A stretch of 64,000 bases of DNA from a virus (IMGVR_UViG_3300047457_000974:2209-66208); one strand, 5' to 3'; shown: positions 2,261-51,154, numbered from the stretch's first letter. The notes: generated from the letters alone by a model not told the origin. Numbers and translations: made by a program.

Positions 2261-3100
2261 ATGACTGCTGCACCAACCCGCCGCCGCCGCGCCGCCCAGC
2301 AGGCGGATCCCGACCCCTCCGCCCGACCCTTCCCGCCGCCGACCGAGCACAGCGAAGCGCTGGTCGAGGCCAACCTGGGCCTGGCCCGGCAAGCAGCCTG
2401 GCGCTGGTCCCGCAAGACCGGCCAGCCGTACGACGACCTGGAGGCGGTCGCGTTCGTCGGCCTGATCCGCGGCTGCCGCCGGTACGACCCCGAGCGGATC
2501 AACCCGGGCAGCGGCAAGCCCTATGCCCTGAGCACGATCGTCTGCCCCTTCGTCAATGGCGAGATCCTCCACTGGTTCCGCGATCGCGGCCATGCCGTCC
2601 GCTACCCCTCGAAGTGGCGCGAGGCCTGGGGCAAAGTCCAGCGGCTGATCGCTGACCCCGACGTGCCGGCCCACGATGTCGCCGCGCAGGCGGGCCTTAG
2701 CCCGGCGGAGCTCGACGAGATGCTGGCCAGCATGACCGGCACCGTCAGCCTCGATGACACCTTCGGCGCTGATGGCAGCCCACCGCCAGAGCCCGAGGAG
2801 CCCGATCGCCTGGCGCCGCTGCAGCGGCTGATCCTGCAGGCATGGAGCAACATGCACCCTGGCGACCAGAGCACGCTGCTGGCGTGGTGGAGCAAGCCTC
2901 ACCGGCTGGCACTACCACAGGGTCCGCTTCAGCAATTCCACGGCCGATTGAAAGCGCTGTTGTCCGGTCGCAGCTTGCGAGAGGTGCTGCAGCTGGAGCT
3001 TTGCCAGGTGGAGCGGGTCGAGGTGGAGAAGAAGCCCCGGGCGCAACGTCGCAGCCGGGATCTGGCGGTGGCCGCGGTGCAGTTGGGGTTATTGGCTTAG
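2261..3100 (+). CDS. Phage sigma-70 family factor (SigF/SigB-like region 2; region 4 looks degenerate)
   Basis: LVEANLGLARQAA...YDDLEAVAFVGLIRGCRRYDP...STIVCPFVNGEILHWFRD (regions 2.1-2.4) and VSLD (region 3.2). C-terminus VQLGLLA. Confidence 0.88.
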   Translation: MTAAPTRRRRAAQQADPDPSARPFPPPTEHSEALVEANLGLARQAAWRWSRKTGQPYDDLEAVAFVGLIRGCRRYDPERINPGSGKPYALSTIVCPFVNGEILHWFRDRGHAVRYPSKWREAWGKVQRLIADPDVPAHDVAAQAGLSPAELDEMLASMTGTVSLDDTFGADGSPPPEPEEPDRLAPLQRLILQAWSNMHPGDQSTLLAWWSKPHRLALPQGPLQQFHGRLKALLSGRSLREVLQLELCQVERVEVEKKPRAQRRSRDLAVAAVQLGLLA

Positions 3101-3226
3101 ACCGCTGCTACGATCGGATCAGCACCTGCGCAGGGCGTTGCGTTGGTGTTATGCCAGGCCCGGTCACCCTCGCGGCGGCCGGGCTTTGTGCTGTCCGGGG
3201 CGGAAAGCTGAGCCATAACCCGGCTC

Positions 3227-4702
3227 ATGCGCGTGGATACTCGGCTCAGTCACCCGATCGACGATCCGCAGCTGCCCAGCTACCGGCATCCGACGCTGCG
3301 TGAGTACGACGAAGATCTGCGCAGGGCGTTTGATGTCTACAGCAACCTGCGCGATTGCAAGGATCGCTACCTCGTTCAGGAGCCCGCCGAGCCGCCGGAG
3401 GCGTATCAGGCCCGGCTGGGCCGCTCGGTGTTCTCGGACTTCTTTCGCAGCTCCATCAAGGCGTTTGCAGGTGTCCTGACCCGCTTCAACCTGGTCGATC
3501 CGCCCGTCAGCTTCGAGCGCGCCGCGGACAACGTGGACCTAGAAGGCAGCAACCTCAGCTCCTGGTGGATGCGTGCCGACACACTGGTCATGCGTGATGG
3601 CGGCGTGGCGCTGCAGGTGGAGATGCCGCCTGATCGGCCCGCCAATGCCGCCGAGGAAGCAGCCATGGGCCGTCGGCCTTACCTGGTAATCCGGCCGCGA
3701 TCCAAGGTGCTCAACTGGCGGACCAGCATCATCAACGGCACCGAGCAGCTGGAGCGGGTGACGTTTCTGGAGATGGTCGAGGTAGAGGATGGCGAGTTTG
3801 GCGTCAAGCTGGAGCCCCGCTATCGGGTGATCACCCGCGGCGAGTGGTTTCTGTTCAAGATCGAAACCGACAGCAAGGGCAAGGCTGAGGCGGTCATCGT
3901 CGAGGAAGGCCCGTACCTCGGCCCTGGCGGCCAGCCGCTCAACGTGTGCCCGGTGATCTGGTACGCGGCCGACATCGGCACTGGCTTCGGACAGGGGGAT
4001 CTGCCGCTGCGGCAGGTGGCAGAGCACAACATCGAGCACTTTCAGCGCCGCTCGGATCTGCGCGAGAAGGATCACAAGTGCAACCTGCCGGTCCCGGTGG
4101 CGATCGGCCGCACGCCTCCCGCGCCAGGCGAGGCGCGCCGGCCGCTGGCGATCGGCCCGAACTCAGTGATCGATCTGGATCAGGGCGGATCGTTCAGCTT
4201 CGCCGAGCCCAGCGCCAGCAGCCTGGCCGAGAGCCGGGCGCAGATCCAGGAGGTCGAGAAGCTGATCGCCCGTCAGACCCTGGGCTTCCTCTACGGCGAC
4301 AGCAGCGGCACCAAGACCGCTACCCAGGCCGGATTGGAGTCTGCGCAAACGGAAGCGACCATCAAGCAGATCGGCGAGCAGAAGGCCTCCGCCATGCAGT
4401 CGCTGCTTGGCTTGTGGTGCCTGTTCACCGGCGAGGAGCTTCCCCAGGGCGCCGGCCTGCAGATGAGCAGCACGATCTACGACCGGCCGCTGGAGTCGCA
4501 GGACGTGGCGCAGATCCAGCAGCTGGCGGGTGGCATCGAGCTGATCAGTCAGGAGAGCGCGATCGAGATCCTGCAGCGGGCAGGGATCAACTCGGCGACC
4601 ACCAGCGTGGAGGACGAGCTGGAGCGCATCCGGGGCGAACAGCCAGAGCCGGCGGAGCCGGTGGGGCTGAATGATCTGGGGATGCTGCCGTCGGAAAGCT
4701 GA
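3227..4702 (+). CDS. Portal protein (DUF4055-like)
   Basis: 491 aa downstream of terL; EPAEPPEAYQARLGRS, NVDLEG, KTATQA motifs. Confidence 0.85.
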   Translation: MRVDTRLSHPIDDPQLPSYRHPTLREYDEDLRRAFDVYSNLRDCKDRYLVQEPAEPPEAYQARLGRSVFSDFFRSSIKAFAGVLTRFNLVDPPVSFERAADNVDLEGSNLSSWWMRADTLVMRDGGVALQVEMPPDRPANAAEEAAMGRRPYLVIRPRSKVLNWRTSIINGTEQLERVTFLEMVEVEDGEFGVKLEPRYRVITRGEWFLFKIETDSKGKAEAVIVEEGPYLGPGGQPLNVCPVIWYAADIGTGFGQGDLPLRQVAEHNIEHFQRRSDLREKDHKCNLPVPVAIGRTPPAPGEARRPLAIGPNSVIDLDQGGSFSFAEPSASSLAESRAQIQEVEKLIARQTLGFLYGDSSGTKTATQAGLESAQTEATIKQIGEQKASAMQSLLGLWCLFTGEELPQGAGLQMSSTIYDRPLESQDVAQIQQLAGGIELISQESAIEILQRAGINSATTSVEDELERIRGEQPEPAEPVGLNDLGMLPSES

Positions 4703-4723
4703 GCCATTGGTTGTTGAAGGCTG

Positions 4724-5455: not shown

Positions 5456-5492
5456 CCCGGCAACCTATCCCGTCCATCTCCACCCACCACCC

Positions 5493-5648
5493 ATGACCCT
5501 CTACGAGGCCATCCGCGCCGCCATCGACGAAGCCACCAGCGAAGACGAAGAGATGAGCCTTCCCGAGTTGATCGGCACCCTGGAGCTGATCAAGGCTGAG
5601 CTGATCGCCGCTGCCCTGGAGCCTGACGACGAGGACGACGAAGAATGA
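5493..5648 (+). CDS. Small acidic protein
   Basis: MTLYEAIRAAIDEATSEDEEM...EPDDEDDEE; preceded by octamer 5459-5466 and a CCA-rich leader; overlaps the MuF start. Confidence 0.7.
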   Translation: MTLYEAIRAAIDEATSEDEEMSLPELIGTLELIKAELIAAALEPDDEDDEE

Positions 5649-8600
5649 CAATCACGCCAGGGCCACGACGCCTGGTTGGCGTCGCTGACGATTACAGCAA
5701 GGCCCTGGATCAGCTGGAGCGCCGCGCCGTTGGCAATACCCGCGAGCTGCTGCGGCGCTCTCTGACCAATACGCTCGCCAGCCTCCGTCGGTCCTATGCG
5801 CTCTATCTGGAGGCGCTGGGCCCCATGAGCCGCGACCCATCCGGGCAGTTCATCCGCCGGCCGGGCAGCTACACCACCGCGGAGGCGACAGCGAAGTTCA
5901 GGGCGATCCTGGCCGATGCGCAGCGGTTCCTGCCCGACTGGGAGCTGGAGCAGTGGCGCATGCAGTACCAGGCCGATCTGCGGGAAGCCACCACACTTGG
6001 CGTTGAACTGGCCAGCGAGCTGACGCGCATGCAGCGGGTGCCGGCACCAGCCCCAGGCATGGGGCCCACTACTCCCGGGCAGGTGCAGCAGCTGGGGCAG
6101 GAGCTGGTCGCCATGGCGCAGCAGCCACCGCAGGCCTCGCCGTTCGCTGGCGTCAACCCCGAGGCGGTGCGGGCCGCTGCCCTGCAGGCCAGCGCCATGA
6201 TCCAGGGCGAGACGGCACGATTCCGCGATCAGATCGTGCAGATCGTCGGCGAGGGTGCATCCCGCGGCTGGGGCCCGAAGCGGCTTGAGCGCGACATCCG
6301 CCAGGCACTGGTCGGCGCTCGCGACCCGAACGGCATCACGAAGCGGTTGGGGCTGGAGCAACGGGCAGAGCTGATCGCCCGCAGCGAGCTGGCAGCGGCC
6401 TACTCCGGAGGGACGCTGCGCACCGCGCAGCAGCGGGGCATCGCCTACGTCAGGGTGATGGCCAGCAATGACGAGCGAACCTGCCCTACGTGTGCGGCGA
6501 GGAATGGCAGGGTCTATCCAGTTGATCGCGTGGCACTGCCGTTTCATCCGAGATGCCGCTGCGTTGCAGTCGAGGTGGAGAACGAGGCCGTCACCGAGAA
6601 GGATCCTGCACTGCGCGCCACCCTGCTCGACTCCCAGCGCTGGCAGGACGAGCACGACCGCGGCGTTGAGGCCTATGCAGAGGCTCGGCACCAGGAGCGC
6701 ATCGACGTGCTGCAACGGCAGGTGGACCGGGCCAAGGACGGCGACCAGAAGGATGCACTGAGCGCCCAGCTGCAGCAGCTGGTAGATCGCGGCCCAGACA
6801 TGGTGAAGGCCCGGGCTGAATTGGCCCAGGCCTTGCGGACGCCTACCGCGAGCGAGCGGCGGCTATTTGGGAAGGATGCGAAACCGCTGCGGGAAAGCGT
6901 GCCACTGTTCGGTGGTGACGAGCCGCCCGCCGCCGCAGCACCGCCGCCACCGCCGGCACCTCGCAAGCCATCGGCGCCCCCGATGGCCCAACGGGTCTCG
7001 CGCATGCGGACCTCGGACATCAGCGCCGATCCAGCCCGCTTTCAGTACAAGCTCAACGCCAACAGCGAAACCGGTGAAGTCGGCAGCCTGCGCGGCGTGC
7101 AGAAGTGGAACGAGGACCTGGCCGGCGTGCTCTCGGTATGGAAGGATCCAGCCGACGGCAAGACCTACGTCATCAATGGTCACAACCGGCTGGCACTGGC
7201 GAACAAGCTCGGCGCCAGCGAAGTGCCGGTGCTCAACATCGAAGCCAAGACGGCAGCAGAGGCCCGCGCGATCGGCGCCAAGCAGAACATCGCCAACGGC
7301 GATGGCACCGCGATCGATGCCGCCAAGTTCATGCGCGACACCGGTCAGCGCGCCAAGGACATGCTGGCCCAGGGCCTGAACCTCAAAGGCTCGGTGGCAC
7401 GCAACGGCGCCGCGCTCGCGGACCTGCCCGACTTCATGTTCTCCGCCGTGGTGGACGGCCGCCTCTCGGTGGACCACGGCGCCGCCATCGGCCGCAGCGG
7501 CCTGACCCACGGCCAGATGGCAGACGCCTACAAGGTGCTGCAGAGCAAGCCATCGATGAGCGCAGCCACCTTGGACGAGGTGCTGCAGGCGGCCCGGGCC
7601 AGCAAGGCCCGCACGCGCGAGGAAGCAACCCTCTTCGGAACCAGTCAGGTAGAGACCAGCACCATGATCGAGCGGGCGGAGCTGGCCGCCAAGCTGCGCG
7701 CCGGGCAGAACCAAGAGATCAGAGTGCTTGACAAAGCCGCCGGCAAGGCTGATGTGCTGGCCGCCAAGGGCAACAGGATCGACGTGCAGCAGGCGCAGAT
7801 CAGGGCAGCTGAGGCCCGCTCGCGTGCGGACGTGTTTGATCTGCTCAAGAACCAACCCAGCAGCGCCATCGCCAAGGCCCTGAACGATGCGGCGGCTGCC
7901 GTTCAGGATGCCCCAAACCGCGCGGCCAAGGCGCAGGCCACCAAGGACGGCAGCGCCCTGGTGAATGCCGCCATCGATCGCGAGCTGCGGCGCATGGCCG
8001 GCAGCAGCAAGGGCCTGCTGCTCAGCGTCGCCGACCTCAAGGCCAAGCGTGCCGGACAGCTCGCGCAACCGCCGGAGCTGGAGCTTGCGGCCAGGCCCGC
8101 GGATCTGACGCTCAGCAGGCTGCCGACGCGCCTGCTGGATCCCGCCACCGCCAAGGCCGGGTCCATCGGCTCCCTGCGACCCGATCAGGTGCGCGCTGAT
8201 GCCGAGCGCTTCCAGTACAAGGCGGCAACAGACGCCAGGACCGGTGAGGTCGGCAGCCTGGAGGGCGTCAGCAAGTACGACCCGGCTCTTGCCGGCGTGA
8301 TCAGCGTCTGGAAGGATCCAGCCAACGGGGAGACGTATGTCATCAATGGCCACAACCGACTGGCCGCCGCGAAGCGACTCGGCGCTGATGCCGTGAGCGT
8401 TCGCTATATCAATGCCGCCACTGCCGCTGATGCCAGGGCGATCGGCGCCTTGGCCAACATCGCCGAGGGCCAGGGAACGGCGATCGATGCCGCCAAGTTC
8501 ATGCGGGAGAAGGGGTACACCGCTGCGGACATGCTGGCGATGGGCATACCGCTCAAGAAGGCTGCTGCGCGCGATGGCGCTAATCTCGCCAGCCTGCCGG

Positions 8601-9223
8601 ATGACATCTGGTCTGCTGTCGTCAATGAAACGATCGGGATCGAAAAGGCCTCACAGATCGGCGGTGCTGGCCTCGACGCGCAGGGTATGCGGAATGTCGC
8701 CAGCGTCCTGGCCAGGCGCCCGAGCGCCAGTGCTGATGTCGTCCGGGAGCTGGTGGCTGCTGAGAAGGCGTCCATGCAGCAGGGGTCGACGATGGAACTG
8801 TTCAACGACCCCGATGCGGAGCGCTTCAAGCTGAGCCGCGCGGATGTGACCCGTTCGATGCGCGATGAGCTGATGAAGGACAAAACCCTGTTCAGCACAC
8901 TGGCTACCAGCAGGGCCGCTCAGGCACTGGAGAAAGCTGGCAGCCAACTGGACACCGCAGCGAATCGCCAGGCGTCCGCCGAGGTTGAGCGTGTGCTGAG
9001 CGTCTTCGATCAGATGAAGAACCTATCCGGCCCCGTTGGGCAGGCTCTGGATCGTGGCGCCAGAGAGATCATGGGCGCCCGCAACGCACAGGAGCGACTG
9101 GAGATTCAGCGCCGACTCAGGGGTGAAATATCAGGCGCTGTTCAGGAGGTGCTGAGCGTGATACCTGGTGGTCAACCACCGCCACCACCGGAAGCGCCAG
9201 GGCAGTCATCACTGTTCGGTTGA
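5645..9223 (+). CDS. MuF/SPP1 gp7-like head morphogenesis protein with two tandem ParB-like modules
   Basis: RAELIARSE...DERTCPTC...PFHPRCRC (MuF), then twice xDxxRFQYK...GVxSVWKDPAxGxTYVINGHNRL...NIAxGxGTAIDAAKFMR. Confidence 0.88.
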   Translation: MTITPGPRRLVGVADDYSKALDQLERRAVGNTRELLRRSLTNTLASLRRSYALYLEALGPMSRDPSGQFIRRPGSYTTAEATAKFRAILADAQRFLPDWELEQWRMQYQADLREATTLGVELASELTRMQRVPAPAPGMGPTTPGQVQQLGQELVAMAQQPPQASPFAGVNPEAVRAAALQASAMIQGETARFRDQIVQIVGEGASRGWGPKRLERDIRQALVGARDPNGITKRLGLEQRAELIARSELAAAYSGGTLRTAQQRGIAYVRVMASNDERTCPTCAARNGRVYPVDRVALPFHPRCRCVAVEVENEAVTEKDPALRATLLDSQRWQDEHDRGVEAYAEARHQERIDVLQRQVDRAKDGDQKDALSAQLQQLVDRGPDMVKARAELAQALRTPTASERRLFGKDAKPLRESVPLFGGDEPPAAAAPPPPPAPRKPSAPPMAQRVSRMRTSDISADPARFQYKLNANSETGEVGSLRGVQKWNEDLAGVLSVWKDPADGKTYVINGHNRLALANKLGASEVPVLNIEAKTAAEARAIGAKQNIANGDGTAIDAAKFMRDTGQRAKDMLAQGLNLKGSVARNGAALADLPDFMFSAVVDGRLSVDHGAAIGRSGLTHGQMADAYKVLQSKPSMSAATLDEVLQAARASKARTREEATLFGTSQVETSTMIERAELAAKLRAGQNQEIRVLDKAAGKADVLAAKGNRIDVQQAQIRAAEARSRADVFDLLKNQPSSAIAKALNDAAAAVQDAPNRAAKAQATKDGSALVNAAIDRELRRMAGSSKGLLLSVADLKAKRAGQLAQPPELELAARPADLTLSRLPTRLLDPATAKAGSIGSLRPDQVRADAERFQYKAATDARTGEVGSLEGVSKYDPALAGVISVWKDPANGETYVINGHNRLAAAKRLGADAVSVRYINAATAADARAIGALANIAEGQGTAIDAAKFMREKGYTAADMLAMGIPLKKAAARDGANLASLPDDIWSAVVNETIGIEKASQIGGAGLDAQGMRNVASVLARRPSASADVVRELVAAEKASMQQGSTMELFNDPDAERFKLSRADVTRSMRDELMKDKTLFSTLATSRAAQALEKAGSQLDTAANRQASAEVERVLSVFDQMKNLSGPVGQALDRGAREIMGARNAQERLEIQRRLRGEISGAVQEVLSVIPGGQPPPPPEAPGQSSLFG

Positions 9224-9529: not shown

Positions 9530-9991
9530 TCAGAACGGCGCCAGCTCCCGCTCGGCATCAGCCGGTGCGTTGTCGTAGGTGACAACAGCAGGCTCCGCCG
9601 CGGGAGCGGGGCACGCGGCAGGGGCGGCAGGAGCATCGGCGGCAGCCTTGCGCAGCACCAGGGCGCCATCGATGTGCTCGATGTCCACCCGGTCGCCGTC
9701 GGCCACGCCGATCAGGGCGCTGTAGCCGGCGGTGACGGGGATCACGCCGGTCTTGCTGGCCTTGACGTTGAAGCTCAGCGGCTTCCCGCGGCCAGCCTTG
9801 ACCACCTTCGGCTCAGGCGTGCCGAGGTCCACGCCCTTGGCATCGATGATGGCCTCGTAGTAAGCGGAGAACAGAATCCGCTCGCTGCCATCCTTTTTTG
9901 TGGCGACATAGCCGCAGGCGCGGGCAATGTCCACCTTGGACAGGTGAGACAGCTCAGCGACCTTGGCCAGCAGTTCAGCGCCCTTCAGCAT
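9530..9991 (-). CDS. Cyanobacterial-type AbrB-like transcriptional regulator
   Basis: LKGAELLAKVAEL...IARACGYV...FSAYYEAIIDAKGV...GRGKPLSFNVKASKTGVIPVTAGYS resembles the cyAbrB pattern. Confidence 0.85.
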   Translation of the reverse strand: MLKGAELLAKVAELSHLSKVDIARACGYVATKKDGSERILFSAYYEAIIDAKGVDLGTPEPKVVKAGRGKPLSFNVKASKTGVIPVTAGYSALIGVADGDRVDIEHIDGALVLRKAAADAPAAPAACPAPAAEPAVVTYDNAPADAERELAPF

Positions 9992-10023
9992 CGTGGATCG
10001 TGGTGGGGAACGCCTATTGTACC

Positions 10024-10045
10024 GCTACGGTTTCGATACCGCAGC
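10024..10045. promoter_or_regulatory. 22-bp palindromic operator, copy between two divergent genes
   Basis: GCTACGGTTTCGATACCGCAGC matches consensus GCTnCGGTnnCGnnACCGnAGC seen at several other sites. Confidence 0.75.
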
Positions 10046-10047
10046 AA

Positions 10048-10248
10048 ATGGATTCACCACCTGACGATCTGGCGGCTTTCCTGCTGCTGCATGCCGCCGT
10101 GAGCGCACGCGACGAGGAGATCACGCGCCAGGCGCTACGGCAAGTCGCGACCGAGATGCCCACCACAACCGGCCACAAGGTCGCATCGACGCTGCATCGC
10201 TCGATCAGCGGCGGCGGGCGGTTGTGGCTCAGCCGGCTGGTGGCTTAG
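10048..10248 (+). CDS. Hypothetical protein
   Basis: MDSPPDDLAAFLLLHAAV...; starts 2 nt after the operator. Confidence 0.55.
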   Translation: MDSPPDDLAAFLLLHAAVSARDEEITRQALRQVATEMPTTTGHKVASTLHRSISGGGRLWLSRLVA

Positions 10249-10970
10249 GCCTTGGGCTTGCGGCGGCGGGGACGCTTGGGCTTGCCGCCGCCGCCACCGG
10301 TGTCACCAGCGGCCGGCAATGCCCTGCCGCCACTGGATCCACTGACGCGCCGACGGCCGCCGCTCCTGCTCCCGCTGATTGCACCGGCCGAGCTTGGCCC
10401 CGTGATTTCGGCAATCCCTCGCAGCCTGGCAGCATCGGCCTGGGCCAGTTGCCGCAGGGTGCCGCGCAATGTTCCAGCGACGCTGCCCGATCGTCCGCTG
10501 GAGCCACTGGAACCGCCGGAGCCATTGCCCCGTGGCGCCGACCTGGCGCTCGGCGCCTTGATCGGCTGACCGGTGATCTGTTCGATGCCTCGAATGAACC
10601 TGGCGTCTTGTTGTGCCAGCTCTCGCAGTGTTTCGCGCAACGTGTCGGCAATGCGAGGCTTCTTGCCGGCGGCTGGCGTTGTATTGACCCGCACGGCGTT
10701 GCCAGTGGTCGTCATCGCTCCGCCGCGGCGTGCCGCTCGGGCGGCGCTCGCCGCGCTCTTGTAGGCAGCTTTGGCTGCCGTTGGCTGAGCCTTGCCCTGG
10801 AATTGCGCGGTCCTGGCGGCTTGCTCCCTGGCGTTGCGACGCTGCTCGGCGCGTGTTCCGACCTTGCCGCCACGCGGTCCCGATCGTCCGACCTTGGCCG
10901 GGCCTCGGCCGCCACTAGAGCCTCCTCCAGTAAAGCGACCCTTGGCATCGCGGTTGTAGGTTCTGGCCAT
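10245..10970 (-). CDS. Basic protein with MARTYNRDxxGRF leader (copy 2)
   Basis: MARTYNRDAKGRFTGGG; internal duplication ADTLRETLRELAQQDARFIRGIEQITG / AGTLRGTLRQLAQADAARLRGIAEITG. Confidence 0.8.
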   Translation of the reverse strand: MARTYNRDAKGRFTGGGSSGGRGPAKVGRSGPRGGKVGTRAEQRRNAREQAARTAQFQGKAQPTAAKAAYKSAASAARAARRGGAMTTTGNAVRVNTTPAAGKKPRIADTLRETLRELAQQDARFIRGIEQITGQPIKAPSARSAPRGNGSGGSSGSSGRSGSVAGTLRGTLRQLAQADAARLRGIAEITGPSSAGAISGSRSGGRRRVSGSSGGRALPAAGDTGGGGGKPKRPRRRKPKA

Positions 10971-10999
10971 GGCAATAGCTCTCGCTCTTTAGGTTTTCG

Positions 11000-11294
11000 C
11001 TACTTCTTGCGCTGACGCTTGGGCTTCTTCTCAGGGTTGGCATTCCGCGGACCCGGCCGAATGTTGCTCTTGGCCTTGCGACGACTCCGCCTGCCTGGTG
11101 GCATCGCGGCCAGCTGCTGGTCGTAGAGCTGCGCCGCCCTGGCAGCCGGTTTGCTGCCAGCCGCAGCCAGCCGTGCGGCGCGTCTGGCGCGACGCTTGAT
11201 CTGCTGCACGCCGAGCTTTCAGCGTCCCGGCCTTGAACTCGTGGAACACCTTTGCGACCTTGCGGTCGCCGGCTGTGGGCTTCTTCTTGGCCAT
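11000..11294 (-). other. Two overlapping out-of-frame basic ORFs (KVAKVFHEFKAGTL-type head and K/R-rich tail); possible frameshifted or deleted gene
   Basis: 11031-11294 starts MAKKKPTAGDRKVAKVFHEFKAGTLK then loses its character; 11000-11209 in another frame is a coherent basic peptide. Confidence 0.45.
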
Positions 11295-11297
11295 GGA

Positions 11298-11813
11298 TCA
11301 GCCCTTCCCGCCACCCATCCGGGTAGCGCGACGTGCAAACCGTGCGGCACTTCTAGCCGCCTTATACGCAGCCTTGGCATTGGTCGGCGCAGCTTTCGAC
11401 CGGAAACGCTGAGTGCGCTCAGCCTGAGCCTTTGCGTTACGGCGCTGCTGGGTCTTGGTGCCTGATTTGCCGCCACGTGGGCCGCGTCGCCTGTCCATGG
11501 CCGCTGCGGCAGAACGTGCTGCCGCCTTAGCCGTCACTGCGGCGGCACGACGAGCGGCCTTGCTGCCCTTGCCTGCCGCACCATCACGCTCTGCCTGCGC
11601 ATTCCGATTCTGAGCCTTGATGTATCGCTCTCGCTGCGGGTTGCGCTTGCCCTTGCCGCTGAGCATTGAGCTGCTGACCTCACGATTCATCGCCTGCTTC
11701 CTGGCTGCCACCGTGCCGCCCGATTTCCTCCCGCCGCTCCTGCCGCCGCCGGATCCACCGCCACCGCCTCCGGCAAAACGGCCGTTGGAGTCTCGTTTGT
11801 AGGTGCGAGCCAT
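11298..11813 (-). CDS. Basic protein with MARTYKRDxxGRF leader (copy 3)
   Basis: Likely start ATG 11813: [24 protein letters not shown]; reverse octamer at 11838-11845. Confidence 0.8.
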   Translation of the reverse strand: MARTYKRDSNGRFAGGGGGGSGGGRSGGRKSGGTVAARKQAMNREVSSSMLSGKGKRNPQRERYIKAQNRNAQAERDGAAGKGSKAARRAAAVTAKAAARSAAAAMDRRRGPRGGKSGTKTQQRRNAKAQAERTQRFRSKAAPTNAKAAYKAARSAARFARRATRMGGGKG

Positions 11814-11837
11814 GATCAAGGCAGGGGAAGCTAGCCC

Positions 11838-11853
11838 AGCTTTCCGGCAACCT
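11838..11853. promoter_or_regulatory. Back-to-back divergent late-promoter octamers
   Basis: AGCTTTCC|GGCAACCT between starts at 11813(-) and 11874(+). Confidence 0.7.
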
Positions 11854-11873
11854 ATGCCAGATTCCCTGCCACC

Positions 11874-12383
11874 ATGCCGGCGCCAATTCCGACGCTCAAC
11901 CCACTGTGGCGGCCCAATGGCAGCAGCGCCCGCGACGATCGCGAGCTGATCAGGGGCTATGCCATGTGGCCGGTCTCGGCCTACAACCTGACGCAACTGA
12001 CAACGGTGCTCAACCGCGTTGCCGATACCTCCGCAGCAACCGTCAAGCAGGTGCAGGCCTGGATTGATGAGATCGAGAACCTGGAGCAGGACTGGTCGGA
12101 CAAGGTGGCTGATGGCACCGCTCATCTCGGCAACGTGCAGCGCTACCGCGGCCCGGCGCCTAGTACCACGCTGACCCGTGATGATCTGCGCAAACGCGCA
12201 GACGTGCTGGAGTGGGATACAAGCCTGCTGCAGGTGGAGTACGAAAGCGGCGGCAGGCCTGATGCCACCGCTGGCGGCACGATCTCGAACCGGATTGCGC
12301 AGCTCAAAAGCCGGATCCTGGAGACGATTGGCATCAAGGCCAGCGATCGCTCCGGCGGGCAGGCAACACTGGTGCGCAGCTGA
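11874..12383 (+). CDS. Putative head-completion/structural protein
   Basis: First of three coupled ORFs ahead of the tail chaperone genes; assigned by position only. Confidence 0.5.
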   Translation: MPAPIPTLNPLWRPNGSSARDDRELIRGYAMWPVSAYNLTQLTTVLNRVADTSAATVKQVQAWIDEIENLEQDWSDKVADGTAHLGNVQRYRGPAPSTTLTRDDLRKRADVLEWDTSLLQVEYESGGRPDATAGGTISNRIAQLKSRILETIGIKASDRSGGQATLVRS

Positions 12384-13323: not shown

Positions 13324-13359
13324 CGGGCGGCAACCTATCCCACCCACCCACAGGCAGTC

Positions 13360-14082
13360 ATGCCAGAGCTTCCGTTTCAGGTTGCGCCGAAGCGACGCAC
13401 CGAGATGATTTCGGTAACTATTGATGATGACACCTATAGTCTTGAGTTTCCTGTTTACCGCAGCCTTCGCGCTGGCGAAGAAATCCAGATTCGCGATGCA
13501 GATTATCAGGCCGCTGTCTATCGCGAATGCTCGCGATTTGCTGATGCGCTTGTCAATGAGGGCATTGAGGAGTTATACGCTCAGCGACTTGCTATCCGCT
13601 GCTTGAGCACCAGGCTGGGTATCCCCATCTCGCTGACTGCGGAGGAGCATCGCGCATTGTTGCGCCATGCCGCCATGGTGGCCGACATTCAGTCGGTTCT
13701 GGCTGCCGAATACGCACGGCAGGTGCGACGCACCGTTACCGCGCTGATTGCCCATCGCCTGCCCGGGTGCAAGGGCTGGACTGAGGATGACACTGATCGC
13801 GCCGTACCTGGTCCGCTGCGGGACGCGATTGCTGCATTCGCTGATCGTGAGCGCAATGCCAATCAGCCGCAACGCACGCCGGAAGAAATGATCGAATCCA
13901 TGGCTGAAACGCTGGGAAAGCTCGGGCCGGAACCATGCCGAAACCCACCGACTGGACAGCTATCTACTGGCGCTGCCGAGAGCTCTGGCCAGCTGCTCCT
14001 GAGTTCGGACCCGATCGATTCGCATCCCTCCCCGTCAACTACATCCTCGCTGCCATTGAAGCCGGCACCCGCCGAGAGTTGA
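13360..14082 (+). CDS. Tail assembly chaperone (gpG-like)
   Basis: Contains in-frame G GGA AAG slippery heptamer at 13914-13920. Confidence 0.65.
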   Translation: MPELPFQVAPKRRTEMISVTIDDDTYSLEFPVYRSLRAGEEIQIRDADYQAAVYRECSRFADALVNEGIEELYAQRLAIRCLSTRLGIPISLTAEEHRALLRHAAMVADIQSVLAAEYARQVRRTVTALIAHRLPGCKGWTEDDTDRAVPGPLRDAIAAFADRERNANQPQRTPEEMIESMAETLGKLGPEPCRNPPTGQLSTGAAESSGQLLLSSDPIDSHPSPSTTSSLPLKPAPAES

Positions 14083-15894: not shown

Positions 15895-15910
15895 AGGTTG
15901 CCGGAAACCT
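15895..15910. promoter_or_regulatory. Back-to-back divergent late-promoter octamers
   Basis: AGGTTGCC|GGAAACCT between starts at 15874(-) and 15934(+). Confidence 0.7.
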
Positions 15911-15933
15911 AGAGGCAATGAGCATCAGCGGCC

Positions 15934-17903: not shown

Positions 17904-17926
17904 TGCCCTAACCGGCAACCTACAGC

Positions 17927-18355
17927 ATGCCCCTCCCCGCCACCGCTCAAGCTCTTCACGACCTGCTGGCGGCTGATCCGATCATCAGCGCTGGCCTCGG
18001 CACCTACACGTTCGCCAACGGCTCGCAGATCCCGGCGATCGCCGTGCTGTTCGGCAATGAGCACCTGCCGCCTGGTACCACGGTCAACGGCGTGGAGGTA
18101 ACGATCACAGCCCTGCCCGGTTACGGCTCACAGCCGCTGCTGACGTTCGAGACGCTGCTGAATCCAACCTGGCGGATCTACATCGCCGGTTGGCAGTCGG
18201 CCGCCACCCTGCAGGCCATTGCGCAGCGGGTGATCGCCATCCTGCCTGGCGCTACCGCATCGGCGCCAACACCAGATCCACCCGGTGAAGGCATGGGGGT
18301 AATCGATCAGATCGTGGTGGCGTGGACCAATCCTGTTGCATCTGTGGAGGCTTGA
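17927..18355 (+). CDS. Putative tail terminator protein
   Basis: 142 aa immediately before the tape measure gene; ALHDLLAADPII start. Confidence 0.55.
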   Translation: MPLPATAQALHDLLAADPIISAGLGTYTFANGSQIPAIAVLFGNEHLPPGTTVNGVEVTITALPGYGSQPLLTFETLLNPTWRIYIAGWQSAATLQAIAQRVIAILPGATASAPTPDPPGEGMGVIDQIVVAWTNPVASVEA

Positions 18356-27411: not shown

Positions 27412-27536
27412 CCGAGCAGCAGCAACCCATCACCGACGAACAGGCTGCCCTGGTGGATGCCGCGCAGATGCGCATCGCAACGCAGCGCCTGAAGCTACAG
27501 CAGAAGCAAGAGGCCCGGAAAGCTGGAAGGCCATAG
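27408..27536 (+). CDS. Small hypothetical protein (42 aa)
   Basis: MTEQQQPITDEQAALVDAAQMRIATQRLKLQQKQEARKAGRP; ATGA overlap with the previous stop. Confidence 0.4.
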   Translation: MTEQQQPITDEQAALVDAAQMRIATQRLKLQQKQEARKAGRP

Positions 27537-29883: not shown

Positions 29884-30060
29884 ATGGGATTTTCGATACC
29901 GCAGGGGATGACCCTGGAGCAGGTGCTGTTGGCAATGGGGCAGGCATCTGAGCCGGAACCGGAGGAGAAGCCAGCCCGTAAGCGTGCGCGGGATGCCGCG
30001 GGAAGGATGATGGGAGACGATCCGGCGACGGCTGAGAACGAGGCCTGGCAGGAAAGCTGA
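29884..30060 (+). CDS. Small protein with RARDxxGR..DDPxT..NEAW motif
   Basis: MGFSIPQGMTLEQ...KRARDAAGRMMGDDPATAENEAWQES; 58 aa, below the ORF-track cutoff. Confidence 0.6.
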   Translation: MGFSIPQGMTLEQVLLAMGQASEPEPEEKPARKRARDAAGRMMGDDPATAENEAWQES

Positions 30061-32906: not shown

Positions 32907-32923
32907 TCACGGAAAGCTGCGCC

Positions 32924-33273
32924 ATGGCATGGATCGAAAACGAAACCTGGGCGATGGAGCAGGGCATTGACGCCCTGAAGGTGTTTGAGCTGTTCAGTGA
33001 CACTGCGCAGACCGTTCCGTATGTGTTCACCGGCAGCGACGTGAATGCCACGGTTTCAGATGCTAATGGACGTAACGTCTATCCAGTCACGGTAGAAACT
33101 GTGCCGGCAAGTGGCATCATTCGGTTGATACTGCCTGAGGCGATCGTCAATAGCCTCAAGGTTGGCGGCACCTATCGCTACGACTGCCTGATGGTGCCGC
33201 CCGGTCCTGTCAACGACTATTTCGTCGCGACCGGTCCCGTCACCGTGGCATTGCGCAGCAGCAGGAGGGATCC

Positions 33274-33277: not shown

Positions 33278-34793
<1,516 letters not shown>

Positions 34794-45630: not shown

Positions 45631-45650
45631 TGGCTCAGCGGCCTGGAGGA

Positions 45651-48139
45651 TCAGCCGGCGAGCACCAGCGGATACAGCCGAGCGATCAGCCGTTCCAGCG
45701 CCTCGCGCAGGGCAGCAAGGCCGGCGGTGATCGGGGCAACGGCCGGCAGGGGCTGTGCTGCCACCAGCACGGCCGAGCGATCAGCCACGACCATCAGTTG
45801 GCGGCGGCTCCACTGCCCGGCGCGGTAGCAGCGCTCCGCCTGGTAGCGAGTCCACCGGCCGGCGGTGAAGGTGGCGGCGATGGTGGCGACGACGGCAGCG
45901 CGGATCTGCTCGCGGTGCTCGTAGGCGATGGCGGCCAGCAGGGCCAGGCCTGCGGTGATCAGCTGAGCGGCGATCCGGCAGGCGCGGAAGCCGGCAGCGG
46001 TGTGGTTGGCATAGGTGGCCCAGGGGAGAGCCTGCAGGCGGGCCAGGGCGGCCCGGAGGGTCGTGGTGGTCATGGTGGGAAATGCTTGTGGGGTGATCGC
46101 CGGGGCCAACTCAGGGCCTCACCGGTGATGGGGAGAGTGTAGCCTGCCAGGGTCGCTGGGGTGGTTCCTGGCGATGGCATCGGGTTCGCCCGGTGTGGTG
46201 GTGGGGAGCCTCTCGGGGCTCCCCTGCACCACAATCAGGCTGCGAGCCAGGCGCGGGCCTCGGTTTCGGTCATTGCGTCGGTGACCGGCCAGCTGTCCAC
46301 CTGCAGGCAGGTGACGCGCTCCCATGAGTAGCCGAACCAGGCGCCGGCGATCTGATCGCGGCGAATGGTGCGGCCAGAGGGCTTGAGTGGATTGGTGGAG
46401 ATGACGCGGGCGGCGGTCATGGCGGTAGCGGTGTGGTGGTGTGGTGGTTGGCCGGGATTGGTTGCGGCTCCCGGCGGGCCGCGCCATCAGGCGTCCCGCT
46501 CCAGCTCGTCCAGCTGGGCGGCGATGGCGGCCTGTTCCGCCTCGATCGCGTCGAGTGCCGCGGTGTTCTCGGCGGAGAGCGCCTGCAACGCTGCCAGTTG
46601 GCCGCTGATGGAGTGGACCGGCACCGGCCGCGCCAGCAGCGCATCGAGCCGGGCGCTCGTCTCGGTCCAGGCCGCCTCCATGGCGTCGATCTCCGCCATC
46701 AGCGCGTCGATGTCGGTGGTGGGGGTGGCGGTGTCCATGGCGGATGGCGGTGGTGGTGGTGTGGTGGTTGACCGGGATTGGAGACGGCTCCCGGCGGGCC
46801 GTGGGCGGGTCAGCGTTGCTGCACCCGGTACACGCGGAAACTACCGCGCTGCAACTGTTGCCAGGCCTCGATGGCCTCGGCCTCGGTGTCGTGCTCGCTA
46901 ACCAGCACCTCGGTTCCAGCATCGACGACACGCCAGGGCAGCGAGTAGGTGAGGGGGGTGTGAGCCATGGATTTTCCAGGGTGGTGTGGTGGTCGGGATC
47001 GCTCCCGATGCACATACATTAGCCCGTAGCGTGACAACCGGCAGCCACTGCCAGGGCCAGTTCACACATCGTCACGCTTCCGGCGCTTCTGGGCATTGAC
47101 GACGCGGCGCAGTCGATCGGCGCGGCCCTCGGGGGTCAGGGCCAACCAGCAGGCGCGGCACAGCGGCGTGTGGCGCCCACGGTGGGGCTTGCCGCATGTG
47201 ACGCATAGGAGCGGTTCAGCTGGCGGCAGCTCCCCCCGCTCGCGGGCTCGCTGGCGCCGCTTGCGCTCGGCGGGTGTGTCGGGACTCACGAAGATGGCGT
47301 GGTGGGAATGGGTGCCGGGATGGGCTCCCGGCGGGCCGTGGGGATGGGTCAGGCAGCGGCGTCGCGGACGACTGCAACGCGCAGCGTGCCGCCGCACAAG
47401 CGGTTCGCCAGCGCCCGGAGAGCGTTCGCGTCGGTGCGGGTGCGGAATGTATCGGCGCTCGTGATGCGGCAGAGCTCAGGCAGGCGGTTGGGGTTCAGGC
47501 GGACGCCGAACGTCCAGCGGCTGCCGTCGTGACACTCGACTCGGTAGGTGGTGTTGGCCATGGGTCCTGTGTGGTGTGGGTGGTGGTGTGCCGGGATGGG
47601 CTCCCGGCGGGCCGTGATGAGTCAGAACGAGTGGTGGTCGTGGATGGTGTTGTCTGCAGGGCGCAAGCCTTTGCCGCGCAGATCGCTGTAGCGCTGGCGC
47701 ATGATGCCGATCCAGTTGCAGCCAGAAGACAGGAGCTGCCAGTTGCCGGCGTCGTCTTTGACGTAACGGCGGCAGTAGGCCTGATGGCCGCCGCAAGGCT
47801 GAAACTCGTAGCGCGCTTGGCCATTGACGGTTTCAAGCGCGAAGTAGGCGGGGAAGGTGGCGGTGGTCATGGCCGGTGGTGTGGTGGTGGTGTGGTGGTT
47901 GGCCGGGATTGGAGACGGCTCCCGGCGGGCCGTGGAAGCGATCAGGGCCCGTTGCCCTCCAGGCAATCCTCCAGAGAGGCGCAGGCGCTGACCAGTTCGG
48001 CGATCAGCGGGTGTGCGTCCTCGATGACGGCCCATTGCGCATCGCTGTAGGCGTCGCGGATCGCCTGCATCGCATTCGCGACATCGGCGCTGGCTTCAAC
48101 AACGTGAGCCAGATGGATCAGGGAATTGGCGAGGCTCAT
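45651..48139 (-). CDS. Array of eight small early ORFs: 45651-46073, 46235-46420, 46487-46738, 46810-46968, 47062-47289 (Cys-rich, basic), 47349-47561, 47622-47870, 47942-48139
   Basis: Each begins after a CCA-rich leader and most end a few bases before a repeat hairpin. Confidence 0.7.
46421..47934 (-). repeat. Intergenic hairpin-plus-CCA-tract repeat (five full copies, one short variant)
   Basis: + strand CCGGGA-n-GCTCCCGGCGGGCCG at 46452, 46772, 47315, 47591 and 47903; variant TCGGGATCGCTCCCGA at 46993. Confidence 0.92.
47015..47035 (-). promoter_or_regulatory. Duplicated putative early promoter (second copy near 48165-48185)
   Basis: ACATTAGCCCGTAGCGTGACA occurs at both heads of the small-ORF array. 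Confidence 0.65.
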
Positions 48140-48212
48140 GGGGTGGTGGTGCGGTGGCTTCACCACATTAGCCCGTAGCGTGACAGGGTGGCAACCCTGC
48201 CGGCCGGTCAGC

Positions 48213-48506: not shown

Positions 48507-50046
48507 GTAGGCAGGTTGCCGGCCTCCATCAACTCCTCAGACACCATCTCAAGCCAGGCTTTGCTCAGGTGCTGCCCCTGCGCCATGCCCTGCTCAAACT
48601 CGTCTGGCGGCTCTCTGGTCAGCTCCTGAATAGGCAGGTGCTGCGCCAGGGCCCAGAGCATGTCCGCCGCCATGCACAAACGGGTCGGCTCGTGGTCGTA
48701 GCTGCGACGCATCGCAGACAGGACGGCCGCAGCGGCGGAGCTCAGCGGCGGGCGGTTGGGGTGGTCATGGTTGGGGTTCCGGGGTGGCGCTTGCAGGGTG
48801 AAACAGAGTGACAGAGGCCGGCAGGGAATAGCACCTACCTGTGTTCACATCGCCTGAAACAACAACAGAATCACTGCCCAGGTGAACGTCGATCACCTTG
48901 ACGGGTCCGTAGACATCATCACTGGCCATGTGTTGGTGCATAACCGACCGGCCAATCAGGGCCGCAAGCTGCGATGGGGTGCGGTTAATCATCACTTCAC
49001 CTCCCCCGCAGGCAGCGGCATGGGCGTGGGGCTTAAGTCAGCCTTGTTTTCCAGTTCCTGCAAGCGCTTCAGTGCGGCGCGGATGGTGTCAAACCGTTTG
49101 ATTTTCTTATGGCCTGTTACCGGCATGAGTAGAACCACAGTTCGCTCCAGCTCCTTCAACGCCAACTCCGCCACATCCCTCGCAGCCATCGGCGCGGGCG
49201 CAGCTTCATCGACCCGCTCGCCAATGACCTGCGCTGCCCAGGTCAACATCCCGGCGTCGGTTGGTTGGCCCGCATCTGCAGCCTGGCAGGCCTGTTCGGA
49301 CAGCCAGGCGATCAGCGAGCCAACCGCCTCGATGGATGGGCCAGGGCCGACCATTTTCGTGGCGTCAGGAGAATGGTGGCCCCAGCGGGCCAGGACGGCA
49401 CGGGCGAACTTAAAGGCGTCCAACGATTCGCCGGGCTCCCAGCCATCTTCGCGGAACCACATCGCCAGCAGGTCTTCATCGCTAGGCTCCCCAACGACGG
49501 AGGCCGGTTCCCTGCCCTCGGGCACAGCCGGTCCATCTGCCTCAGCGGCCAGGGCAGCGCGGGCGCGGTCAAGCAGAGCTTTGTAGGTGCCAGAGGCAGC
49601 CTCTCCTGTTGATGCCAGCCCATCGGCCATCTCCTCACACAGCGCTCTCCAATCAGTACTCATCGTGGTATCTCGGTGTGGTGGGTCTGATGTGAATGAT
49701 CTCCGCCGTGGGGTGCAGCTTCCGCCACAGCCAGCCGGCGGACCACTGGCCGTGGGCTTTGATCCGATAGTCGCGGGTGCGGGAGGCATCGAGCCTGACC
49801 GTCACCCACCAGTCGCACAGATCAGGACGCATCTCGCATCTGCTGTAGCAGCCGCTCAGCGGCCTCCAGCACCCACGGCAGCTCCTCGGGATCCAGCTCG
49901 ATCTCCTGATCTTCCTGCTGCAGGCGGATGAAGAAACCGCCGGCTCGATCGCCGGCCAGTTGCACCTTGACGGCCTTGTAGCTCAGGGGATCGTCCGTGG
50001 CCGAATGCACGGCGATGTCCGTGATGGTGGTGCGATGCTCAGCCAT
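48503..50046 (-). CDS. Hypothetical ORFs (48503-48712, 48765-48995, 48992-49663, 49822-50046)
   Basis: Coupled minus-strand ORFs; 48992-49663 contains ARAALA/FARAVLARWG motifs common in cyanophage hypotheticals. Confidence 0.5.
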
Positions 50047-51154
50047 TGCGCACCTGCACCGGCATCACCAGGTACTGGAAGCCCGAATCGTCCTCCACCG
50101 GCTCCAGCACGACCGGTGCGGTGGCTGCGTTGGCCTGCAGGACAACCTGATCGGCGCCGATCGCCTTCAGCCCCTCCAGCAGGTAGCGCACGTTGAACGC
50201 AATCGTTTCGGCCTCGCCAGTGATCACCGCAGCCAGCGACTCGGACCCGCGGCCCAGTTCCTGTGCATCGGCGCGGACGGTCACCTGGTTCCGGTCGGGG
50301 TCAATGGTCAGCTTCACCACGTTGTTGTGCGGATCAGCCAGTACCGCGACCCGATCCAATGCCGCCAGCAGCGTCCGGCGGTTGATCACGATGCTGCGGC
50401 TGAAGCCACCGGGGATCAACTGCCGGTAGTTGGGATAGGTGCCCTCCAGGATCCTGGTGGTGAGCAGCCTGTCGCCGCTGATCAGCACCGCCTGGCCCTT
50501 GTCGGCGAACAGCTGCAGGCTGCCGCCGTTGCCGCCCAGCAGACGCTCCAGCTCTCGCAGCGACCGGGCGGGGATCGTCAGCTTCAGATCACCGCCGCTG
50601 CTGGAGACGGTCAGCACCGCCAGGCGGTGGCCATCGGTGGCGGCACACTCCAGACCATCGGCACTGAGCTGCAGATGCACACCAGTGAGCAGCTGCTTCG
50701 ACTCGTCGCTGCTGCTGGCGAACAGGGTGGAGCGCAGCCCCGCCAGCAGGGCAGCCGCATCGATGGTGATCGGCGCGCCGGTCTGCTGCAGCGGCAGGTC
50801 GGGATAGTCGCTGGCCGGCATGCCCCGCAGCTCGTAGCTGCCGGACAGGCTGGTGAGCGTCGCCGTATCGTCACTGGCCGTCAGTGTCACCGGCGCAGCA
50901 TCCGGCAGGCGCGACACGATGTCCCCCAGCAGACGGGCCGGCAGGGTGATGCTGCCGCTGGTTTGCACCGCGGCGGCGATGCTGGTCTGGATGCCGAGTG
51001 ACAGATCGAAGCCCGTCAGGCTCAGCCGGCCGGTGGCGGCATCGGCGGTGAGCAGCACGTTGGCCAGCACCGGATGGGTGGGGCGGCTGGAGACGGCACG
51101 GCTGACGATCTGAAGGCTGGCGCTGAGTTCGGCCTGGGAGGTGGTGAGTTGCAT
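50039..51154 (-). CDS. dnaN: DNA polymerase III beta sliding clamp
   Basis: SRAVSSRPTHPVLANVLL, GFDLSLGI, ATDGHRLA, EGTYPNYRQLIP, IAFNVRYL, YLVMPVQVR. Confidence 0.95.
   Translation of the reverse strand: MQLTTSQAELSASLQIVSRAVSSRPTHPVLANVLLTADAATGRLSLTGFDLSLGIQTSIAAAVQTSGSITLPARLLGDIVSRLPDAAPVTLTASDDTATLTSLSGSYELRGMPASDYPDLPLQQTGAPITIDAAALLAGLRSTLFASSSDESKQLLTGVHLQLSADGLECAATDGHRLAVLTVSSSGGDLKLTIPARSLRELERLLGGNGGSLQLFADKGQAVLISGDRLLTTRILEGTYPNYRQLIPGGFSRSIVINRRTLLAALDRVAVLADPHNNVVKLTIDPDRNQVTVRADAQELGRGSESLAAVITGEAETIAFNVRYLLEGLKAIGADQVVLQANAATAPVVLEPVEDDSGFQYLVMPVQVRNG

Follow-up and report, generated by a model that had tools for sequence, protein, structure and literature searches.

A phage sigma factor that lacks the -35-reading helix-turn-helix carries a candidate sliding-clamp motif at its C-terminus

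The DNA analysed here, referred to as the window, is a stretch of 64,000 nucleotides comprising bases 2209-66208 of the 66,208-bp IMG/VR virus record IMGVR_UViG_3300047457_000974, which has direct terminal repeats and is rated 100% complete. It encodes a sigma factor of 279 residues and, on the opposite strand, a beta sliding clamp (DnaN). From the sequence of the window alone, the original prediction had proposed that these two proteins belong to a late transcription system coupled to the sliding clamp, resembling that of phage T4. The sigma factor is a sigma-70-family protein that has regions 2, 3 and 4.1 and is without the region 4.2 helix-turn-helix (HTH) that reads the -35 element. Its C-terminal QLGLL satisfies the sequence definition of a clamp ligand and sits after a linker modelled with low confidence (predicted local distance difference test score, pLDDT). 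The gene is organized as follows.

2261-3100, + strand: sigma factor gene, 279 residues, in the packaging/head module between terL and portal (open reading frame (ORF), Pfam, PHROG and Foldseek)
2345-2596, + strand: region 2 (residues 29-112), for core binding and -10 recognition; conservation within the family is highest here (hhalign)
2609-2764, + strand: region 3 (residues 117-168), aligned to region 3 of cellular SigB/F (hhalign)
2813-3001, + strand: reduced sigma-4-like domain (residues 185-247), 4.1 helices kept and first helix of the 4.2 HTH gone (VIA-align and hhalign)
2990-3004, + strand: internal QLELC, replaced in relatives by QLGLGL, QLSLAV or QLALAV
3005-3079, + strand: basic, weakly conserved linker of about 25 residues with a nearly invariant R263 (pLDDT 55-76)
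3080-3094, + strand: C-terminal QLGLL (residues 274-278, with only A279 before the stop codon), a candidate beta-clamp-binding motif under the published motif definition

The only Pfam family found in the sigma ORF is Sigma70_r2, which matches residues 34-82 with 25.4 bits against a cut-off of 24. The SigF and SigBFG models of NCBIfam match partially over residues 29-171 and remain far under their cut-offs (TIGR02980, 55.1 bits against 234.35; PRK07408, 77.1 against 261). Judged by these sequence comparisons, the protein is related to the SigB/SigF/SigG subfamily and is not a member of it by the NCBIfam rule. PHROG 36098, annotated as RNA polymerase sigma factor, covers residues 33-192 (E 7.7e-27). 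The AlphaFold model, built on 53 homologues, has a mean pLDDT of 82, and the region-2 helices (residues 29-37, 39-53, 57-74 and 90-112) exceed 88. With this full model, Foldseek retrieves sigma factors in RNA polymerase (RNAP) complexes at E values of about 1e-4 over about 240 columns. In addition, hhalign aligned residues 30-206 of the sigma family to residues 71-249 of five cellular SigB/F-type sigmas with a probability of 99.4. That regions 2 and 3 are kept, as the original prediction stated, is thus borne out by the Pfam match and by an alignment running through region 3. In a Pfam scan of 53 family members (E of 5 or below), Sigma70_r2 was matched in 50 and Sigma70_r3 in 3, and weak generic HTH families were matched in 16-18 at positions within the protein that the scan does not give.

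The same prediction held that the sigma factor has no recognizable region-4 HTH. This holds for region 4.2, whose HTH is lost, and does not hold for region 4 as a whole, since a 4.1-like domain persists at residues 185-247. Three helices of this domain (residues 185-196, 200-211 and 220-234) are modelled with pLDDT values of about 95, and the hhalign alignment ends at residue 206, at the 4.1 helices, right where the cellular 4.2 HTH starts. Among the matches listed in the Pfam scan, which cover 25 of the 32 matched families and leave families with at most one member each, a region-4 family (Sigma70_r4 or r4_2) occurs in none of the 53 members at E of 5 or below. Similarly, in the precomputed list, PF04545 and PF08281 are assigned to none of P0001-P0114 and are present in the five cellular sigmas P0115-P0119. 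When the model of the C-terminal domain was compared with 48,161 chains by VIA-align, the top rows were sigma-4 domains. The best was 3hug_A (SigL sigma-4; Z 6.2, root-mean-square deviation 3.4, 61 residues aligned, model 3-63 against chain 98-177), and further sigma-4 rows were 6dv9_F, 4nqw_A, 8x6g_H, 5wuq_A, 7lq4_A, 8z6g_B and 2h27_D, with Z values of 5-6.2. The proposed likeness to sigma-4 rests on the repeated appearance of such domains at the top of this list and on the hhalign result. Relative to the sigma-4 chains aligned to it, the domain lacks about 16 residues, a difference that, in the model, fits the loss of one HTH helix. The remaining 4.1-like domain probably binds the beta flap.

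Two forms of the canonical clamp motif are defined, Q-phi-x-[L/M]-[F/L] and Q-phi-x-[L/M]-x-[F/L], and QLxLF binds tightest (PMC11139829). The clamp peptide of Pol II ends in QLGLF (PMC11139829), and QL(S/D)LF-type clamp peptides are described in PMC9690074. The sigma ORF ends in ...AVAAVQLGLLA and contains ...EVLQLELCQ... internally, exactly as had first been read from the window. For the family as a whole, 114 members were drawn from a search of 5.8 billion proteins; their typical tail consists of a basic, variable linker and then Q[LM][GA]L[LIVM], placed at the C-terminus or adjacent to it. A relaxed pattern, Q[LMPACVF][GSADV][LF]x, was chosen post hoc and matched 107 of the 114 members, two of them at the internal motif, leaving 105 of 114 with a terminal match. 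The misses comprise the near-variants QLVMC, QLGII, QLVMV, QLGLP and ELGLI, the apparently truncated P0093, and P0106, a true absence. Under the strict definition, the motif is found in the last 25 residues of 52 of the 114 members (64 if Met is allowed at position 2), compared with 3 of 92 more distant sigmas. In the alignment of 53 sequences, Q244, L247, V250, R263 and Q274 are at least 90% conserved and the residues between them are variable. The conservation of a terminal QLxL(L/F), on which the original prediction depended, is therefore strong with respect to the relaxed pattern and to Q274.

A wider sample leads to the same picture. A profile search of 1.84 billion cluster representatives (50% identity) returned 58 clusters at E of 1e-30 or below, and Qxx[LM][FLIVM] occurs in the last 40 residues of 31 of the 58 representatives versus 7 of 92 weaker matches, the background in the bodies of the same proteins being 0.067 per 40 residues. 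The tails of the 58 include QLDLF, QLGLF (three), QLALF, QPSLF and QMGLF. In distant members, QPSLF (11), QMGLF, QCDLF, QADLF and QLALF lie 12-19 residues before the end of the protein, which implies that the conserved feature is the Q..L[LF] core and not the C-terminus itself. At the level of sequence, the family consensus converges on the canonical clamp motif as the members diverge. Within IMG/VR, 139 stretches encode a relative of this sigma factor. On the other hand, the phage collection held no cultured relative with the tail: none of the 40 matching records covers 80% of the sigma factor. No clamp motif on a phage sigma-70-family factor is reported in the literature covered, a search of main texts outside which supplements lie, including the supporting figure of the Mu paper on clamp-motif transcription factors.

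The internal QLELC may be a second, weaker clamp-binding motif or merely the last helix of the domain. The copy in the window does not meet the published definition. Across the family, two Q-phi-x-[LM] cores are present in the last 60 residues of 79 of the 114 members, and QLGLGL occurs in 12. A complex of the DnaN dimer with sigma residues 235-279, predicted with alignments and with controls not folded, scored 0.31 against a mark of 0.32, and a second run scored 0.00; these scores weigh neither way on binding.

One further protein of the window has a comparable ending.

5645-9223, + strand: MuF-like head protein, 1192 residues
9203-9217, + strand: tail of the MuF-like protein, ending in ...PPPPPEAPGQSSLFG, with a clamp-motif-like QSSLF(G) after a Pro-rich linker

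In the ORFs called in the window, 18,367 residues in all, such a motif occurs in the last 20 residues of two proteins only, the MuF-like protein and the sigma factor. A single orthologue of the MuF-like protein was found, in G004 (1 of 24 records searched), and it ends in ...EAPGQESLFG.

The second component of the proposed system is the clamp, encoded as follows.

50039-51154, - strand: phage dnaN, beta sliding clamp, 371 residues (333 bits with TIGR00663, cut-off 137.65; the three Pfam clamp domains are all matched)
51154-51639, - strand: SSB gene, directly upstream of dnaN in the replication block (Pfam SSB, E 3.3e-18)

The dnaN gene that the original prediction had located here is confirmed, and its start is placed at 51154 because the TIGR00663 match begins at residue 21 of the long ORF. 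The protein is 65-66% identical to the DnaN of Cyanobium, Synechococcus and Vulcanococcus. In a set of 34 phage and host DnaN sequences, T172, G174, H175, R176, L177, N320, Y323, M362 and P363 are invariant; the presumed equivalence of DnaN columns with the peptide-pocket residues of E. coli was derived by offset from the match ranges. The absence of a DNA polymerase and a clamp loader, first noted for the window, extends further: families of PolA, Pol III alpha, PolB and dnaX had no match in the whole 66,208-bp record or in seven other near-complete relatives. Control searches for the polymerase and loader families gave matches in named genomes, and the dnaX/RFC-like control matched in bacteria and archaea. 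Judging from this gene content, the phage must use the replisome of its host (Pol III holoenzyme) and the host clamp loader.

It had also been expected that the sigma factor and dnaN would occur together, and this expectation was not borne out. Of 25 related records, 7 carry a dnaN gene, and among the 8 with a completeness of 90% or more the number is 3, yet the tail motif is kept in all 24 related sigmas examined, with or without a phage dnaN. Since dnaN is patchy while the tail is constant, the phage clamp appears to be an accessory of host origin, and the host clamp is the likely general partner.

The genes around the sigma gene, and the primase gene at the far end of the window, are arranged as follows.

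717-2249, + strand: terL, 5' of the sigma gene
3227-4702, + strand: portal gene, 3' of the sigma gene
60104-62737, + strand: primase gene, after the - strand block

A + strand block at about 80-37,300 contains a ParB-like gene, a small ORF, terL, the sigma gene, the portal gene, the gene of the MuF-like protein, and head, tape-measure and tail genes. A - strand block at 37,300-59,900 contains genes for a class II ribonucleotide reductase, DnaN, SSB, a RecT-like protein and two helicases. At related loci, terL lies upstream of the sigma gene in 58 of 66 and the portal gene downstream in 36 of 45; these counts use loosened distances, and tighter thresholds gave 17 of 71 for terL and 31 of 69 for the portal gene. 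The window comprises nearly the complete genome of an uncultured siphovirus-like phage, probably with a host of the Cyanobium/Synechococcus picocyanobacterial type, the host being suggested by the identity of the phage DnaN to the picocyanobacterial proteins together with the G+C content of the window (63.6%).

The third component is a short DNA motif. The octamer GG(A/C)AA(G/C)CT occurs 27 times in the window, compared with 9.19 ± 2.96 in shuffled sequences, and none of 100 shuffles reached 27. All 17 copies on the + strand fall within 3202-35815, in the + strand structural block, and the octamers in the - strand block are on the - strand. In 23 of the 27 cases, an ORF of 45 residues or more starts within the following 27 nucleotides, versus 9.5 ± 2.3 for random positions (maximum 18 in 300 trials), and the spacings cluster at 5-6 nucleotides, as in leaderless transcripts, and at 12-26 nucleotides. 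The near-complete genomes with this sigma factor carry 20-30 octamers each compared with 4-7 for the reversed control; the motif is enriched in all eight, and in all eight the octamer-richer strand is the strand of the sigma gene. A core 11-mer, C(C/T)GG(C/A)AACCTA, recurs at orthologous intergenic sites in the related but diverged records G001, G002, G004, G011, G015, G016, G021 and G023, and the flanks of these sites are not conserved. The following copies illustrate the arrangement.

3202-3209, + strand: octamer GGAAAGCT, 17 nucleotides before the portal start; the first + strand copy, with none upstream of terS, terL or the sigma gene within the window
5457-5467, + strand: CCGGCAACCTA, with the octamer GGCAACCT inside, 26 nucleotides before an ATG; orthologous intergenic site in G004, G011, G015 and G021
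11844-11854, + strand: CCGGCAACCTA, 20 nucleotides before the ATG at 11874; orthologous sites in G001 and G002
13327-13337, + strand: GCGGCAACCTA, 23 nucleotides before an ATG; orthologous sites in G011, G015 and G023
13915-13922, + strand: octamer GGAAAGCT, 12 nucleotides before the ATG at 13935
15901-15911, + strand: CCGGAAACCTA, back to back with an octamer on the - strand at 15895-15902
17912-17922, + strand: CCGGCAACCTA, 5 nucleotides before the ATG at 17927, a spacing typical of a leaderless transcript
27517-27524, + strand: octamer GGAAAGCT, 24 nucleotides before the start at 27549
30051-30058, + strand: octamer GGAAAGCT, 5 nucleotides before the ATG at 30064
32911-32918, + strand: octamer GGAAAGCT, 5 nucleotides before the ATG at 32924

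When 20 sites of the CCTA type, selected by the motif itself, were aligned, no conserved block was found upstream, the information content from -50 to -3 nowhere exceeding 0.4 bit per position. Over the first 20 kb, sigma-70-type -35/-10 matches number 2 versus 2.8 expected. The lone octamers, put forward originally as late promoters, are thus a real motif, coherent in strand and close to gene starts, and the CCTA-type sites checked have no -35 block; their role as promoters is putative. The octamer is absent from the 400 nucleotides upstream of the sigma gene in 43 loci. Another candidate, GCCGATCAGG as a sigma-28-like -10 element, was dropped, its copies lying almost always inside genes.

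Paralogous basic proteins whose N-terminal MARTY(K/N)RD..GRF precedes poly-Gly are encoded at 9530-11820 on the - strand and at 4707 and 15934 on the + strand, and several of their genes have an octamer about 20-25 nucleotides upstream. Between the sigma stop codon and the portal octamer lies a hairpin at 3157-3185 that could end the terL-sigma transcript. As a terminator candidate (+ strand, GC-rich, 9+2 pairs followed by UUUGUG), it was rejected, the fold of the intergenic stretch being statistically unremarkable (z -1.03) and the terminator scan giving no call.

Comparison with T4 gives the proposal its form. In T4, the clamp-binding motifs of both gp33 and gp55 are borne on linkers, that of gp55 being 21 residues long; the flap tip helix is gripped by gp33 in the manner of sigma region 4, and the transcription complex has the clamp at its upstream end (PMC7892883). 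The phage sigma factor resembles this system in being a specificity factor without -35 recognition, in that T4 late promoters are -10-like only and the octamers here are putative single-element promoters, and in the C-terminal clamp motif on a flexible linker of about 25 residues. By analogy, it would also share a flap-binding module without a DNA-reading HTH and late genes coupled to replication, a coupling that is proposed for the phage sigma factor. The differences are equally evident. Instead of the two proteins of T4, one sigma-70-family chain holds regions 2, 3, 4.1 and the tail; the clamp is a DnaN ring (TIGR00663) of the host or derived from the host, whereas that of T4 is the gp45 trimer; and T4 has its own loader (gp44/62), whereas no phage loader or polymerase was found in any of eight genomes. 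No likeness to gp55 or gp33 turned up in the Pfam scan (E of 0.01 or below, Sigma70_r2 only), a result obtained with no gp55/gp33 profile search made.

A second comparison is offered by phage Mu, whose late activator MuC uses the E. coli beta clamp via two near-consensus clamp motifs and whose late promoters have a -10 element and no evident -35 element (PMC12867686, 2026). Like MuC, the phage sigma factor would use one or more clamp motifs for late transcription through a bacterial clamp. MuC is a DNA-binding activator working with the host sigma-70, whereas here the motif is on the sigma factor itself. As a sigma-70 homologue, the phage protein appears to belong to neither the T4 nor the Mu protein families, and no homology to MuC is expected. 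Among clamp partners in general, Pol II (QLGLF), Pol IV and Pol V (QLNLF) similarly end a disordered tail with a Q-phi-x-[L/M]-[F/L] pentapeptide (PMC11139829, PMC9690074), whereas position 5 here is Leu and not the higher-affinity Phe. No sigma factor is among the clamp partners named in the excerpts of these two papers. Cellular group-3 SigB/SigF/SigG members, for their part, differ from the phage sigma factor in having a full 4.2 HTH.

The nearest described relatives are the 'type III rpoS' proteins of the cyanosiphoviruses P-SS2 (GQ334450.1) and S-CBS2 (GU936714.1), which share the gene order terS-terL-rpoS and are homologous in regions 2-3 (identity 34% with P-SS2, residues 35-196, and 44% with S-CBS2, residues 32-130). 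ORF003 of P-SS2 is described as a group-3 sigma of unknown regulon (PMC2784084). Unlike the phage sigma factor, the proteins of P-SS2 (213 residues) and S-CBS2 (206 residues) end shortly after region 3/4.1 and are without linker or clamp motif. The octamer is strand-biased in both genomes (18 forward and 0 reverse in P-SS2; 13 forward and 4 reverse in S-CBS2), which suggests that it belongs to this sigma type in general.

Based on the results presented above, the following sequence of events can be proposed. The replication block would be transcribed by host sigma factors, and the terS-terL-sigma unit probably too. The primase, helicases, SSB and RecT-like protein would recruit the host Pol III, whose loader would leave beta clamps, of the host or of the phage, on replicating phage DNA. 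The phage sigma factor would hold core RNAP via regions 2, 3 and 4.1 and read a -10-type element, and its QLGLL tail, on the basic linker, would tether the holoenzyme to DNA-loaded clamps, maybe with the help of the second, weaker motif. The clamp would then replace the missing -35 contact at single-element GG(A/C)AA(G/C)CT promoters before the portal, head and tail genes, so that late transcription would depend on ongoing replication. Clamp binding, promoter identity and activation are what we infer here from the anatomy, the conservation of the tail, the gene content and the motif statistics, all of which were observed directly. We lean slightly towards regarding the phage sigma factor as a one-chain, bacterial-clamp counterpart of the sigma-2-like gp55 plus the flap binder gp33 with its clamp tail. 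The broader statement is possible, if short of an even chance: that a widespread cyanophage sigma clade of at least 58 clusters is the single-chain equivalent of gp55 and gp33, serving octamer promoters at which a host or phage clamp, bound through one or two motifs, replaces the -35 contact. The clamp-coupled late switch of the original prediction is thereby partly supported, by the conserved tail, the loss of 4.2 and the octamer; the part that falls away is the phage dnaN as a regular partner.

Several observations weigh against this interpretation. The strict motif is limited to about half of the family members (52 of 114), many tails read QLGLV, QLGLI or QLGLM or have P at position 2, and P0106 and P0093 are without the motif. 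The tail-less sigmas of P-SS2 and S-CBS2 indicate that the tail is not needed for a sigma factor of this type to work, and dnaN does not travel with the sigma gene (3 of 8 near-complete genomes). With respect to region 4, the Z value of 6.2 is modest and in the range that VIA-align calls common for helical models, and a Foldseek search with the C-terminal 105 residues folded alone returned nothing at E of 0.001 or below. The exact octamer occurs within 300 nucleotides after the sigma stop codon in only 16 of 43 distinct loci, and its distance of 5-26 nucleotides from start codons would also suit an RNA-level or translational signal. Finally, the sigma gene belongs to the packaging module instead of being placed among early genes.

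The alternative that survives best, although unlikely, is that the tail binds the clamp without activating promoters, in order to park the sigma factor, or the RNAP that holds it, on clamps as a sink or anti-sigma-like store, to compete with host clamp partners and so disturb replication and repair in the host, or to recruit RNAP or packaging factors to replication forks. The evidence from the tail motif serves this explanation as well as clamp-coupled activation, and the QSSLFG ending of the MuF-like protein (QESLFG in G004) hints at the clamp as a wider docking hub. It is also in keeping with the lethality of MuC overexpression, which the authors of that study link to Hda and DnaN (PMC12867686). 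However, the loss of the -35 HTH and the single-element motifs before late genes fit activation better, and the conserved core-binding regions argue that the protein works as a sigma factor.

It is rather improbable that the tail is not a clamp motif at all, being instead a linear motif for the terminase, RNAP or an anti-sigma, or a C-terminal degradation tag. Many of the sigmas have ...LLA, ...LLVA or ...LLAA as their very last residues, and the endings LLA, LVA and LAA recall ssrA-type ClpXP tags; the half of the family outside the strict definition also speaks for such a reading. On the other hand, the cores QPSLF, QMGLF, QADLF and QLALF of the distant clades lie well inward and are followed by unrelated sequence, and a core that persists when it is not terminal makes a degradation tag a poor explanation. 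Moreover, the invariant Gln and the hydrophobic positions 4 and 5 are hallmarks of clamp motifs, and it is the most divergent members, with tails such as QLDLF and QLGLF, that are nearest to the canonical QL[SD]LF.

Least probable is a conventional group-3 phage sigma with an unusual region 4 that continues to recognize an upstream promoter element, with an incidental tail and an octamer that is a translation or RNA-processing signal: the tail-less relatives are presumably functional, the octamers lie close to start codons and the conserved helix 220-234 could still touch DNA, but the 20 aligned sites show no conserved upstream block, the tail is conserved over more than 100 clusters, and the octamer is unlike a Shine-Dalgarno sequence and is spaced variably (5-26 nucleotides) from the starts.

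Other features of the window stand apart from the sigma factor. Beside the primase gene, the intergenic stretch 62738-63076 contains a TATATATATA run along with roughly seven GTTACAG/CTGTAAC repeats (of 9 copies in the window, 7 are here) and is a candidate replication origin with iterons. The most intergenic-enriched 7-mer, CGCTACG/GCTACGG (CGCTACGG), has 9 of its 14 copies between genes, mostly in the - strand replication block. Its sites are at 10024, 45551, 47030, 48179, 52587, 53678 and 59866-59888, several of them 2-9 nucleotides before a start codon, and three sit in a longer palindrome-like element, GCTAC(G/T)GT(T/A)(T/A)CGATAC. This element is a candidate early promoter or operator. 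The most over-represented 10-mers derive from collagen-like coding repeats (33.4-33.8 kb) and from a repeated cassette at 46-48 kb. The former belong to a tail-region ORF of 240 residues (33344-34066, + strand) with Gly-X-Y repeats, in which GCCCCCAGGG occurs seven times; the latter, at 46100-48200, has TCCCGGCGGG five times and GGTGTGGTGG seven times on the + strand, between very small - strand ORFs. Bases 1-2600 of the record, 5' of and running into the window start, are lower in G+C and contain a methyltransferase-like ORF (4-759), a PAPS-reductase-like ORF (756-1940) and the ParB-like ORF (1937-2593), all three preceding terL and named from reading their translations only.

So far, the only reports of clamp-activated transcription concern T4 and, from 2026, Mu. 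If the interpretation proposed here is true, this sigma factor would represent a third independent origin of such transcription and the first with the clamp motif on a true sigma-70-family factor. The tail of the MuF-like protein may in that case link head assembly or cargo to the same clamp hub. With one sigma factor, the host core RNAP, DnaN and a promoter of 8-11 bp, the system would be a simple one in which to study how a clamp can replace -35 recognition, and P-SS2 and S-CBS2 could serve as tail-less comparison systems. The coupling of replication to late genes would then have arisen again from ordinary bacterial parts, and it would be common in environmental cyanophages that borrow the replisome of their host.

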